From the NCBI RefSeq assembly GCF_045037415.1, contig NZ_CP173438.1: 64,000 bases of DNA; one strand, written 5' to 3'. Below are positions 21,001 through 30,000 of this stretch, in pieces; positions within the stretch are counted from its first letter, which is position 1; every line of letters starts with the position of its first letter. The position numbers were made by a program. Source of the DNA: Escherichia coli (GTDB lineage Bacteria; Pseudomonadota; Gammaproteobacteria; Enterobacterales; Enterobacteriaceae).

Positions 21001-24000
21001 CAGCTCCTCTTCCAGTGAGGTGCAGACCCCCGTCAGTAATTCCCGGGTTCTGGCATCGATCTCCTCCATGGCCATTCTGACATCAGCGGTCACCTGCTCC
21101 TGACAGTCTGCTATTTCCCGGATATCCTCAAGCAGGCTGGTGATATGCGCCTGCAGTGACTGAATACTTTGCATCAGCCCCTGATGGCGTAACGACAGGT
21201 ATTCACTGATATTTTCTGCATTCTGCATCAGTTTTGCGGCGGCAGAATCAACCGCCAGTGCCGCAGCTCTGGAGTGTGAACTCAGTATGACTTCCGTTAT
21301 CAGTTGATCGATAAGTGAGCCTTCCCACAGGTCTGTCGCCCCTTCAGTTGCCAGTTCGCTGTCTTTACAGACGTAATCTTTTTTCATGCGACCGAAGGCT
21401 TCCCTGACAAAATCATCGACCCAGGCTTCATCAACAGGAAGGGTTCCGTTTTTCCGTAACTCATGAAGCGCACGGTTAGCCAGGTATGCCTGGCGTGAGG
21501 ATCCGGGATAAACGCGGGAGGCGGGCAGCACATCGCTGTTCAGCATTGCCGGTACCTTCTGACAGACTGCATCAGCCCCATCGCCATTACGGTCTTTTTC
21601 ATCAAATTTATTGACCAGCACAAACAGGCGGCCGACAGACACATCAGCAATGGCATTAAGCTCTTTACGAACCTCCTCATCGGCTTTCGAGTTCATCTGG
21701 GTGTAGTCCATCACCGCCAGCACCGCAGAGGCTTTCTGCAGTTGATCCCGCATCATCACTTCCATCTGCGGTTGTCCGGCTTCATTAGGGCCGGGGGTAT
21801 CCAGCAGTGTGAGTGTTCCCTGGCATTCATCCATCCCCACCAGATGGCTGAATTCCACGTCGATCACCGGCAGTTTCTGCACTTCTGCGTATTCATCAAA
21901 AGGAAATTCACTCCCCATTGCCGCAGCAAGACGAACCAGATCGTTTAACGATGCCAGTCCGGTAAAGATTTCCTCCTCCCCGTGGTATTCATTTTTGAGC
22001 CAGCCATCATCCGTCAGAATATCCAGCAGTTCGCGGGTATCCCCGGTTTGCTGCAGGGTCTGTGCGACCTGCTGTCCTGCCGGGGTGGCGAGTTTTTCCT
22101 GCAGTGTGATTAATAAATTGCGGACAGGCTGAATATGTTCCAGATGGAGAACCGGCTCAGTTTTTCCGGGAACGTGGCGGATGAGCGTCGGTACAGAGGT
22201 CATGGGGCGGTTACGGTTAGGCAGAATTTCCTGCCCCACAATGGCGTTGATGGTGGTTGATTTACCTGCTTTCATCGTGCCGACAACAGCCAGCACCATC
22301 TCCCTGCGGGCGGTTTTGATTTGTTCGCCCTCCAGCTCCTCAATTCTTTTCAGTGCTTTCTGTTTATCAAAAAGCAGTCTTTTTTCGTTCTTACTGTCAG
22401 ATAACACATCTGGCTCCTCAACCATTTGCCGGAGCAGATTAATGTTCAGTTGCAAAAGTCGGTCGGCTTCATCACAAAGCAGGGCGATGTTCTTTTCGTG
22501 CATTATTTAACCTTCCTGAGACGCATTTTCATGACAACCACGGAGGAGGTCATTTACCACAAACGATCGTTTATAACGATCGATATGATAGTAACGATCG
22601 ATGTATTCTATTAACTTGAAAAACACAACGCAAGGGGACACCCCGGGTATGGCTGCGTTTGCATAGTGTTTTCATGGAGTTAAAAATCTGTAACAACAGC
22701 CTGGTACATCACCACCGGGTTCAGAAGAAAATCCAGTTCCATACCGCGCGGGCAACAGAAACCACCGAGTCACGGACGGCGCGCAGAACCGTGCGTGCAA
22801 CAGAGGCAATGCAGACACTCTCCGCCGTGTCAAATATCCGGTCCACCGCACCGGTAAACTGTTCACGGGTCTGAGTGCGGACAGACTCCGTGCGCAGTTC
22901 GTCCTGCAGGCGTGTCATCAGAGGGATGGCGGCATGTCCGGGAAGCACTGTCATGAGTGCACTGACCGGGGTGACCTCCCCCTGAAACAGTGCATTACAG
23001 AGTGAGGATTTACCGGCCCCGCTTTTACCCATAATGCCAGGCACGGGTTCGTGACGGGTGAGTTTGCGCAGATGTTCCAGGATGTGACGGGAAATCGGGT
23101 AAGGCAGGGAGGAGAGCGGTTTTTCAATTGCCTCAATGGCATCAGACGGATTCATACATGTATTCCCAGTGAAAAAAGACAAAACCCCGTGCACCGGAAA
23201 GGTGGCGGGGGATTCACGGAGATAATATCTTTCTGAAATTATTTTGAATGCAGGTATATGTGGCTGATTTGTATCAGCTAATGAGTACAGGTCTGAATCT
23301 AATCTGACAGTCCGCTTTGTGCCAAAGGCGGACGCTCAAGTAGATACTGTCCTGACAGTATGCGGTAATCAGAGTTGTTATATATTACTTGCGTCCAAAC
23401 CAGCTTTCTGACAACCCGGCCGCTCCTGCTTTCAACAACGCGCCGCCATACTTTTATGCTGCAAAGAGCGGAGACAGAAGGTTAGCGTAATTTGTAAATA
23501 ACTTACATTCACGTGTGATCTGGATCATAATTTTGCCTATGCACCGATCGTAATATAAATATTTACATAACGATCAGTGATTCATGAAAACTCAAATAAC
23601 TTTCGCTGCGCTTTTGCCAGCATTAGCGTCTTTCATACCGCTTCATGCTCATGCCTCGTCTACTTCTGAAGATGAAATGATTGTCACGGGCAACACCGCC
23701 GCCGACACCACCGATTCTGCCGCCGGTGCCGGTTTCAAAACGAACGATATAGATGTCGGCCCGCTGGGAACGAAATCCTGGATCGAAACACCATATTCCA
23801 GCACCACTGTTACTAAAGAGATGATTGAAAATCAGCAGGCGCAAAGCGTCAGCGAGATGCTGAAATACTCTCCCAGTACGCAAATGCAGGCGCGCGGTGG
23901 AATGGATGTCGGGCGTCCGCAAAGTCGGGGGATGCAGGGCAGCGTGGTGGCCAACAGCCGTCTGGACGGGCTGAATATCGTTTCAACAACCGCGTTTCCG

Positions 24001-27000: not shown

Positions 27001-30000
27001 GCTGATGGCGCTCCTGGTAGGAATGGCGCTGGGTTTGGCCGGGGCAGAGATGCAAACTATTCTGAATAACTCCCTCGCCAGCCCGTTTACGCTTGGCGTT
27101 TCGTCGGCGGCGGCCTTTGGCGCAGCGCTGGCGATTGTTCTGGGCATCGGTATTCCCGGCGTTCCCGAAAGCGGGTTTATACCGGCAAACGCTTTTCTTT
27201 TTGCGCTCCTGTCCGCCCTGCTGCTCGATAGTCTGACCCGCTGGACGCGCGTGCCGACGTCGGGCGTTGTGCTGTTTGGGATTGCGCTGGTGTTTACCTT
27301 CAATGCGCTGGTGTCCATTATGCAGTTTGTCGCCGATGAAGATACTTTGCAGGGCCTGGTGTTCTGGACGATGGGCAGCCTGGCTCGCGCATCATGGGAG
27401 AAACTGGCGGTGCTGGCGGCGGCGATGGCGATTGTTTTACCCTGGTCGCTGCGTCGTGCCTGGCAGCTTACCGCGCTACGCCTCGGCGAAGAGCGGGCGA
27501 TGAGTTTTGGCATTGATGTTCGCCGTTTGCGCCTGGGTTCCCTGCTGCGCATCAGCCTGCTGGCGGCCCTTTCGGTTGCGTTTGTGGGGCCAATTGGCTT
27601 TATTGGCCTGGTTGCACCGCATATTTCCCGCCTGTTGCTGGGAGAAGATCATCGCTTTTATTTGCCCGGAAGCATCCTTATCGGTGGGCTGGTGCTATCG
27701 CTGGCCTCGGTAGCGTCGAAGAACATCATTCCCGGTGTCATTTTACCGGTAGGAATTGTTACCTCGCTGGTAGGCGTTCCGTTCTTTCTGAGCATTGTAA
27801 TGCGTCATCGAGGGAGTATGTCATGAGCGGGCTTACGATTAATGCGCTGTGCGCCGGTTACGGCAAACGGCGGATTATTGAGCATCTGTCGATTTCTACG
27901 CTGCCGCGCGGCGAAGTCACTGTACTGCTGGGGCCTAATGGCTGCGGTAAATCAACGCTACTGCGCGCCCTGGCCGGGCTAAATCGCGCCAGTGGCGAAG
28001 CCTGGCTGAATGAAGAGAATCTCTTATCGCTGCCGTTTGCTCGTCGGGCTGAAAAAGTTGTGTTCCTGCCGCAGTCCCTGCCGCAGGGCGTGCATTTACA
28101 GGTGCTGGAGTCGGTGGTTGTCGCCCAGCGCGCCTCCGGCGCCGGGCAAAATCAGGCGCAGGCTATAGCGCTGCTCGAAGAGCTAGGCATCGCACATCTG
28201 GCAATGAACTACCTCGATAGCCTGTCCGGCGGTCAGAAGCAGCTGGTGGGGCTTGCACAGTCGCTTATTCGCCGCCCCGAATTATTATTGCTGGATGAAC
28301 CACTGAGCGCGCTGGATCTCAATTATCAGTTCCATGTGATGGATGTTGTATCGCGCGAAACGCGAAGACGCAATATGGTTACGCTGGTCGTCTTACACGA
28401 TATCAATATCGCACTGCGGCATGCCGCCCAGGTCATCATGCTGAAAGAGGGGAAACTTATCGACAGCGGCGACCCGCAAACGGTGATCCATGCAGAGAGC
28501 CTTGCGCAGGTATACGGCGTACGCGGGAGAGTTGAACGTTGTGCTCAGGGAAGATCGATGGTGATAGTGGATGGTGCAATCGAAAAATAGTCGGATTAAC
28601 GTGGTTGCTTCAGCCTCAGGTAAAGATCAATAGGAAGTCTGTAATGCAACATATAGACCGCCTTAATGTCATTAAAGCACTTGTGCTTCTAGAAGATGAG
28701 CAGATTGTTCGTTTTAACATCGCTGCGAACGATAACGCCTCGCAGATCCACATGCTCGTTGACGGTCTGGGCGTCGGGCTGACACATGAGCCTGTCGCTG
28801 CCGGAATGATTTCGCACCGGACAGCTTGTCACCGTTCTAGGCAACATGACAGACCTGCGCATTCCTATTTCTATTATCTATCCGCCTACCAAGTTGCTTA
28901 ATGTCAGGCTAAGGCCCTTTAATGACTGGATTTCAGACCGATTTTCTGGACAGCCGAGCGGGTAAATCGCAGTACACTGACAGCTAGACAATAAAGCTCC
29001 GGTTCATGTTTGAACCATGTGTAGTGAATGTCCGCTGTTCGCTCACAACGGACCTTCAGTTCAGCCGCTCCGGCCGCTTCATGCCATGAATGTACGCAGC
29101 CAGTCAGAATATTAAGGTGCGGATTTCAGTTCACTTGTCAGCGCCAGTGACACAAGACAGTAATGACCAACAATTTGGTATTGACACAACAAGTTGCGGC
29201 CCCGGTTCGTGGAGGAGATTAAACGACTGTAGCCGGGGCCACTGAGTAAGCGTCAACGGAGCACCGTATTGACGCTTATTTATTGGTGAGTACTACGTTC
29301 CATGGCAGGAGTTCGTCAACTCGGTTGGAAGGCCATTCCGGCAGTACGCTCAGGATATGGCGCAGATACGCTTCCGGATCGATACCGTTCAGACGGCAGG
29401 TGCCGATCAGCCCGTACAACAGTGCTCCACGCTCGCCGCCGTGATCGCTGCCAAAGAACATAAAGTTTTTCTTTCCGAGACAGACTGCACGAAGCGCTCT
29501 TTCCGCAGCATTATTATCCGCCTCCGCCAGACCGTCATCACTGTAATAACAGAGGGCATCCCACTGATTCAGTACATAGCTGAACGCTTCGCCCAGTCTG
29601 GATTTTTTCGACAGCGTACCATTCTTCTCCACCATCCATTCATGCAGCGACGTCAGTAACACTTTGCTTCGCTGCTGCCTGACGGCAAGACGCTCTGACT
29701 CCGGTAATCCCCGTATTTCATCCTCGATGGCGTACAGTTCACTGATTCGCTTCAGGGCTTCTTCTGCCGTCGCACTTTTGCTGCTGATGTATACATCGTG
29801 GATTTTTCGCCGGGCATGGGCCCAGCACGCAACTTCTGTCAGTGCACCACCTTCACGTTCTGCACTGAACAACCTGTCGTAACCTGTGAACGCATCCGCC
29901 TGCAGGATACCCCGGAAGGGGCGGAGGTGTTGCTCCGGGTGTTTCCCCTGCCGGTTCGGCGAGTACGCGAACCAGACCGCTGGAGGAGATGACGAACCCA

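Follow-up and report, generated by a model that had tools for sequence, protein, structure and literature searches.

Among the catalogued loci of extraintestinal pathogenic Escherichia coli (ExPEC) is the fbpABCD system of the cobU and aspV islands, encoding a TonB-dependent receptor, a binding protein, a permease and an ATPase, which island catalogues count among the iron-acquisition virulence factors. Strain CFT073 carries two copies, one in PAI-aspV and one in its cobU island, encoding identical proteins. A review lists the 'Fbp system, fbpABCD, Fe acquisition' beside Hma in the cobU islands of 536, CFT073, UTI89, RS218, IHE3034 and UM146 (PMC7545054), and the retrieved literature treats fbp as an iron system, with neither substrate nor regulator shown. 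By array, no expression of fbpA1 and fbpA2 was reported, either in the urine of patients or in vitro (PMC2978726). Other described systems share individual features with this operon. The molybdate transporter modABC of E. coli, under control of the molybdate repressor ModE, belongs to the type I importers; its oxyanion binder is of the ModA type, and it lacks an outer-membrane part. The Haemophilus influenzae molybdate/tungstate type II importer MolBC-A (HI1470-72) is known to us without any partnering TonB-dependent receptor, and Yersinia YiuABC-YiuR, whose gene order differs from that of fbp, is Fur- and iron-regulated. In Azotobacter vinelandii, the 'Class B' operons of TonB receptor and ABC genes (Avin_30860, Avin_39890, Avin_47130) become active only if molybdenum and vanadium are both lacking (PMC9542535). 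Here the copy of fbpABCD found in a 64,000-nucleotide stretch of E. coli DNA (contig NZ_CP173438.1 of assembly GCF_045037415.1, hereafter the window) is set against these systems. Its promoter, conserved in other genera, carries a near-consensus predicted ModE operator and an FNR-type site as its only conserved elements, suggesting a role in molybdenum scavenging rather than in iron uptake.

The predicted ModE operator, ATCGTAATATA-AATATT-TACATAACGAT, is a 28-bp palindrome at 23547–23574, ending 9 nt before the ATG of the receptor gene fbpA. It departs at two positions from the E. coli ModE consensus ATCGNTATATA-N6-TATATANCGAT (as quoted in PMC545781), is the sole match in the 64 kb at up to three mismatches, and found no counterpart in 100 shuffles. 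Two known K-12 sites served as positive controls: the modA operator and that upstream of moaA each emerged as the single best match, with four mismatches apiece, a poorer fit than the box at fbp. At fbp, as at modABC, the operator lies at or next to the predicted transcription start, and the right half-site, TACATAACG, is identical in the two. A slightly longer, 38-bp palindrome (23542–23579) is the sole intergenic part that aligns E. coli to Serratia, the box itself being 96% identical over 26 nt, and together with a short upstream element it is also conserved in Enterobacter, Klebsiella and Citrobacter. This pattern extends across a comparison set of 58 loci encoding FbpB relatives (one genome per species, 645 kb in total), 42 of which have a ModE box with at most four mismatches, while the 645 kb hold no other match. 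In all but one of these 42 loci the box is found a short way upstream of the receptor gene, the distance to the start codon being typically 9 nt; in the exception, Shewanella locus L050, it precedes the binding-protein gene. Four further loci have boxes with five to six mismatches in the same place. Taxa with the box include Cedecea, Citrobacter, Kluyvera, Serratia, Pantoea, Erwinia, Providencia, Morganella, Proteus, Pectobacterium, Shewanella and Nitrobacter. In several Proteus loci (L058–L061, L064 and L069) two tandem ModE-like boxes, 53–55 bp apart, stand upstream of the receptor gene, at about 3587 and 3642. A divergent variant of the operon in another E. coli genome (GCA_050311255.1), with a binding protein 83% identical, has a degenerate box with more than three mismatches, about four by eye; it occupies a different island, beside an integrase gene and a co-oriented gene for an AraC-family regulator. 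No paper linking a ModE site to the fbp locus or to a TonB receptor was found, although coverage of the literature was incomplete and an earlier description is possible.

Among the orthologs it is the half-sites that carry the conservation, while the N6 spacer and the flanks vary freely, as befits a protein-binding site rather than an RNA stem. The palindrome can fold as a 5' untranslated region (UTR) hairpin (−10 kcal/mol, z = −3.1), and an Rfam search gave no match at E ≤ 1 to any known RNA element or riboswitch, including that for molybdenum cofactor (Moco). The hairpin is disfavoured and a DNA operator preferred because the variable positions are not kept complementary, conservation is at the level of sequence, and the predicted start falls inside the palindrome. 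Boxes for Zur, NikR and MntR, compared by eye, do not fit in spacing or in half-sites.

The second conserved element is a predicted FNR/CRP-family site, GTGATCTGGATCAT (23515–23528), which matches the FNR consensus TTGAT-N4-ATCAA at eight of ten positions and encloses the weak palindrome tgatctggatca (23516–23527) that the preliminary description, made from the sequence alone, had noted when looking for a Fur box. Its centre lies 39.0 bp upstream of that of the ModE box, and this distance is kept: matches of at least 8/10 occur at an offset of 39–40 in 25 of 41 related loci, against nine such matches in total over the other 78 offsets tested. Here too conservation resides in the half-sites, with a variable spacer between them. 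Against the CRP consensus the E. coli site scores 9/10; FNR is nevertheless preferred, since orthologs vary the outer G required by CRP and yet keep TGAT-N4-ATCA. Read as a class II activator site at about −41.5, the element would place a −10 hexamer at TAATAT (23551–23556, plus strand), within the left half of the ModE box, and the transcription start near 23563. On this reading bound ModE would extend over about −16 to +12, with the same geometry as at modA. A consensus scan also returned an alternative sigma-70 match, CTTACA-18-CATAAT, at 23502–23531; in the consensus-based promoter candidates examined, the ModE box falls on or downstream of the start site.

A Fur box, by comparison, was not evident. 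Scanning the region upstream of fbpA with the 19-bp Fur consensus gave a best score of 12/19, at 23517 and 23523, and 92 positions of the window score at least 12, so that these matches stand at the level of AT-rich background. An internal positive control is provided by the promoter of the heme receptor gene hma, directly upstream of which two overlapping Fur boxes, scoring 16/19 and 15/19, occupy 61507–61531. The orthologous fbp promoters score mostly 11–12 and share no conserved Fur box, and the weak fbpA matches overlap the conserved FNR-type site. A Fur box at the fbpA promoter was accordingly rejected, in agreement with the preliminary description, which had found no convincing one. Its view of the genes as a complete iron-complex uptake route can be kept as to the completeness of the operon and not as to iron, given the missing Fur box, the predicted ModE and FNR-type sites, the reported lack of fbpA expression in urine and in vitro, and the mixed relatives of the binding protein described below.

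The operon itself consists of four intact open reading frames (ORFs) on the plus strand. The product of fbpA (23584–25749) is a TonB-dependent outer-membrane receptor of 721 amino acids with Plug and barrel domains (PF07715, PF00593), in which a DEMIVTG motif following the signal peptide was identified by inspection as a TonB box, and an N-terminal signalling extension is absent. The next gene, fbpB (25757–26749; start at 25760 in RefSeq), encodes a periplasmic binding protein of cluster A, assigned by Pfam to Peripla_BP_2 (PF01497), and is followed by fbpC (26768–27826), for a single FecCD-family permease (PF01032, 276 bits) presumed to form the homodimeric permease of a type II importer. Last comes fbpD (27823–28590), encoding an ABC ATPase (PF00005) whose best NCBIfam relatives are heme and FecE ATPases, every score being under the cut-off. 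With junctions of 7 nt (fbpA/fbpB) and 18 nt (fbpB/fbpC) and a 4-nt overlap (fbpC/fbpD), the ORFs and their domains confirm the co-oriented, tightly spaced set of receptor, binding protein, permease and ATPase first described.

The proteins point to no single cargo. FbpA passes the TonB-dependent siderophore receptor model TIGR01783 (287 bits, cut-off 223.5), and among proteins of solved structure it is closest to FemA (231 bits), BauA (199 bits) and FetA, followed by FhuA. An AlphaFold2 (AF2) model of FbpB (pLDDT 83) was matched by Foldseek most closely to 4ovk, an uncharacterised Veillonella protein, and next to H. influenzae MolA (3psa), which binds molybdate or tungstate, to the Fe-catecholate binder YiuA and to the Ni-His binder CeuE of Helicobacter pylori, with template-modelling (TM) scores of about 0.7 and identities of 20–25%. 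The likeness of FbpB to MolA covers both fold and family (TM 0.73, 24% identity, phmmer 6e-16), and MolBC-A likewise has a single permease gene of the same family as fbpC; the relationship is remote, with FbpC scoring 142 bits to MolB (HI1471) and lying nearer to HmuU (170 bits) and BhuU (168), ahead of FhuB (137) and BtuC (122). Yersinia Yiu resembles fbp in combining a receptor with one binder, one permease and one ATPase, YiuA reaching a TM score of about 0.72 to FbpB at about 22% identity, and differs in being Fur-regulated where fbp has a ModE box. Compared with modABC, whose operator it would share, the fbp system is an importer of type II, uses a binder of cluster A and adds a TonB-dependent receptor.

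Comparison across genera defines the conserved unit as a promoter of about 95 bp and the four genes, the flanking DNA diverging. Homology of the window to seven other loci begins at 23489–23548, and in the five loci that retain the four genes and align throughout it ends at 28589–28607, at the fbpD stop codon. Within this unit the core is the receptor and the binding protein, the permease and ATPase standing alongside in only about 16 of the 58 loci. Most genera have receptor and binder genes without an adjacent permease or ATPase, as seen in Kluyvera, Serratia, Mixta, Providencia, Pantoea, Erwinia, Morganella, Proteus, Pectobacterium and Shewanella (L024, L027, L028, L030, L033–L049 and others). 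Relatives are also found in organisms with high molybdenum use (Azotobacter, Paracoccus, Nitrobacter, Azoarcus), which counts for a molybdenum function. The surroundings vary: the operon lies between aroG and gpmA in C. koseri, after yfaZ in Serratia, and in an island by an AraC-type gene in the variant E. coli. Adjoining mod genes were seen only in C. koseri, by chance of core position, together with a Mop-like domain in Azoarcus. Some clusters contain additional genes. A SAM methyltransferase gene separates receptor and binder in Nitrobacter (L055), the A. vinelandii CA cluster (L052) includes an F420_oxidored-type NADP oxidoreductase, and in that of Paracoccus versutus (L066) a second binding protein is encoded along with a 'heavy-metal chelation' protein (DUF364/DUF4213). 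In the last of these a Mo-box-like CGTTAT-N12-ATAACG follows just after the FbpB homolog, at about 6893.

With ModE and FNR-type sites in place of a Fur box, molybdenum scavenging appears more likely than iron uptake, and we put at about 0.6 the probability that fbpABCD takes up molybdenum or tungsten, probably in chelated form, when induced by molybdate starvation under anaerobic conditions through ModE and FNR. FNR would activate the promoter from about −41.5. Since the predicted −10 hexamer and transcription start fall within the ModE box, as they do at modA, ModE carrying molybdate would repress the operon, which would therefore be on only when cells are both anaerobic and short of molybdate. 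Such timing would suit enterobacteria, which make most of their molybdoenzymes anaerobically. The likeness of FbpA to the siderophore receptors FemA and BauA makes an organic chelate the most likely form in which it would import molybdenum (or tungsten). Once in the periplasm, the cargo would be bound by FbpB and then carried across the inner membrane by the BtuCD-like type II importer FbpC2D2. In genera with only the receptor and binder, the last step could be performed by another transporter, plausibly ModABC, derepressed under the same conditions. The A. vinelandii Class B operons offer a precedent, in that receptor and ABC genes are induced by lack of molybdenum; they differ in being controlled by VnfA1 and sigma-54 rather than through a ModE operator, and the A. 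vinelandii relative of FbpB, judged from genome position only, is apparently not a Class B locus. The chances are even that the proposal holds in its broader form, in which FbpA and FbpB would be the core of an unrecognised TonB-dependent molybdenum (or tungsten) pathway, widespread within Enterobacterales and also outside them, that ModE with molybdate would repress and FNR would activate and that would bring a molybdenum chelate or other non-molybdate molybdenum species across the outer membrane under anaerobic molybdenum starvation, so that the name fbp would be a misnomer.

Several observations weigh against this proposal. The left half-site has the same departure from consensus (CGTAATATA) in most enterobacterial loci, and an E. 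coli-type box was not found in the receptor promoters of A. vinelandii, Paracoccus and Azoarcus. FbpB resembles the iron-chelate binder YiuA and the Ni-His binder CeuE about as closely as it does MolA, FbpC is closer to the heme permeases HmuU and BhuU than to MolB, and the score of FbpA is that of a siderophore receptor. Porins are wide enough for molybdate to cross, which leaves the need for a TonB-dependent route unexplained. Repression by molybdate combined with anaerobic induction would explain why fbpA1 and fbpA2 were reported as unexpressed in urine and in vitro, but that result may partly reflect isolates without the gene.

The conventional view, implied by the name fbp and by the annotations, is that the operon is Fur-controlled and takes up a ferric siderophore, possibly a xenosiderophore. 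It agrees with the receptor model and the solved siderophore receptors nearest to FbpA, with the resemblance of FbpB to a binder of Fe-catecholate, with the weak 12/19 Fur-like matches, and with the listing of the locus in reviews as an Fe acquisition system (PMC7545054). These Fur matches, no better than background and well under the 16/19 of the hma control, overlap an FNR-type site that is conserved where no Fur box is; the sole strongly conserved element is the ModE operator, and no expression was reported in urine, which is iron-poor (PMC2978726). The iron reading is thus not supported, and we regard it as unlikely. Somewhat less probable still is that ModE controls the operon and the cargo is something else (a molybdenum cofactor or pterin precursor for salvage, thiomolybdate, tungstate or vanadate), or that ModE acts as an activator and the system supplies another factor while molybdoenzymes are being made. 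A TonB-dependent receptor with a BtuF-like binder and a BtuCD-like importer is the architecture of cofactor salvage, as for B12 and heme, the FNR-type site would tie the operon to anaerobiosis under such a scheme as well, and the choice of repression over activation follows from a predicted start site. Against these alternatives, most loci have no dedicated inner-membrane transporter, which agrees less well with an intact cofactor being imported than with an ion being released in the periplasm, and the box, 9 nt ahead of the start codon, coincides with the transcription start or lies downstream of it in the promoter candidates examined.

Very improbable, by our estimate, is a reading in which E. 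coli carries the operon as silent cargo of the island, with the palindrome an inherited relic without present function. Deletion of fbp is reportedly without effect on fitness in mouse urinary tract infection (Lloyd 2009), and the locus sits amid insertion sequence (IS) elements and pseudogenes. No expression of it was detected by array (PMC2978726). Set against this are the four intact ORFs, a promoter at least 99% identical in 899 genomes, and the retention of the box and its spacing across genera at 44–92% protein identity, where the flanks can no longer be aligned.

Were control by ModE and FNR real, both the iron label and the aerobic, iron-limited conditions of testing would be wrong for this operon, which would also account for its apparent lack of expression. 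Blooms of Enterobacteriaceae in the inflamed gut are driven by molybdoenzyme-dependent anaerobic respiration, which tungstate serves to block in experiments. A TonB-powered outer-membrane route for molybdenum, which to our knowledge would be new, would in that case be a new component of gut-bloom physiology and a possible route of entry for tungstate.

Immediately downstream of fbpD lies the remnant of a LysR-type regulator (28646–28965, plus strand), comprising the last ~80 residues of the effector domain in two frames. The frames are separated by an additional G at 28818/28819, defined relative to a metagenomic copy with an open frame, and when stitched together their 106 residues match PF03466 at positions 130–208 of 209 (31.4 bits, cut-off 28). 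The preliminary description, whose end coordinate of 28953 falls 12 nt before the stop codon of the remnant, was thus right to see a frameshifted C-terminal LysR fragment here. RefSeq annotates part of it as a hypothetical protein, homology to LysR proteins starts at about residue 20 of the remnant ORF, and the helix-turn-helix (HTH) domain is absent, so that it does not qualify as an intact LysR gene. The further suggestion that the locus once had a dedicated regulator was not supported. Homology to the loci of Enterobacter, Klebsiella, Citrobacter, Serratia, the variant E. coli, Cedecea, Pseudocitrobacter and Kluyvera ends at or before the fbpD stop codon, and a search of five of them, those of Enterobacter, Klebsiella, Citrobacter, Serratia and the variant E. 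coli, did not detect the fragment, so that no LysR gene appears to be conserved next to the operon. A word-based database search for the ancestral gene returned only truncated copies next to fbpD, and an HMMER search of 1.8 billion representatives gave as closest full-length LysR a protein 39% identical, with no close intact parent. Lying outside the conserved unit and undetected in the five relatives searched, the fragment is best read as leftover flanking DNA with no role in the operon, and an ancestral dedicated LysR was rejected.

As to its setting, the window has the cobU arrangement, with genes for a dynamin-family protein, an RdcB-family protein and a patatin upstream of fbp and hma at 59324–61498 on the minus strand. 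The ExPEC context surmised at the outset was found as expected, fbpABCD of CFT073 being the same locus: positions 23310–29233 are 99.7% identical in DNA to the aspV copy (11740–17662 of locus L002), the WP accessions of FbpB and FbpC are shared, and the dynamin, RdcB and patatin flanks match cobU. The FbpA proteins differ (WP_000856948 here, WP_000856947 in CFT073). The shared flanks are only 91–97% identical, which suggests that this 5.9-kb piece alone was recently transferred or underwent gene conversion. The locus is widespread in the species, at least 80% of a 6-kb query (23300–29300) being present in 899 of 5426 complete E. coli genomes and the 121-bp promoter in 964 of them.

The only structural difference of the locus from the CFT073 copies is the IS66-family DNA inserted downstream in the window (29234–34487, minus strand), which is absent from both copies and was delimited from the CFT073 alignment breakpoints, the ORFs and the Ecol_AZ146 annotation. 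It includes ISEc23 (29276–30889, with tnpB at 30920–31270) and a second IS66 transposase gene at 31600–33171; ISEc23 tnpA is seemingly truncated, and the second element may therefore be nested in the first. On the other side of the operon, the aspV copy of CFT073 has a 4.25-kb integrase-bearing segment inserted at the equivalent of window position ~23310–23324, beside a hairpin at 23305–23338. Adjoining fbp is the trio of genes for the patatin-like phospholipase, the RdcB-family protein and a 794-residue dynamin-family GTPase (18150–22503, minus strand), and between trio and operon lies a truncated remnant of a YeeP-like GTPase (22721–23194), which together with the trio also stands beside fbp in both CFT073 copies.

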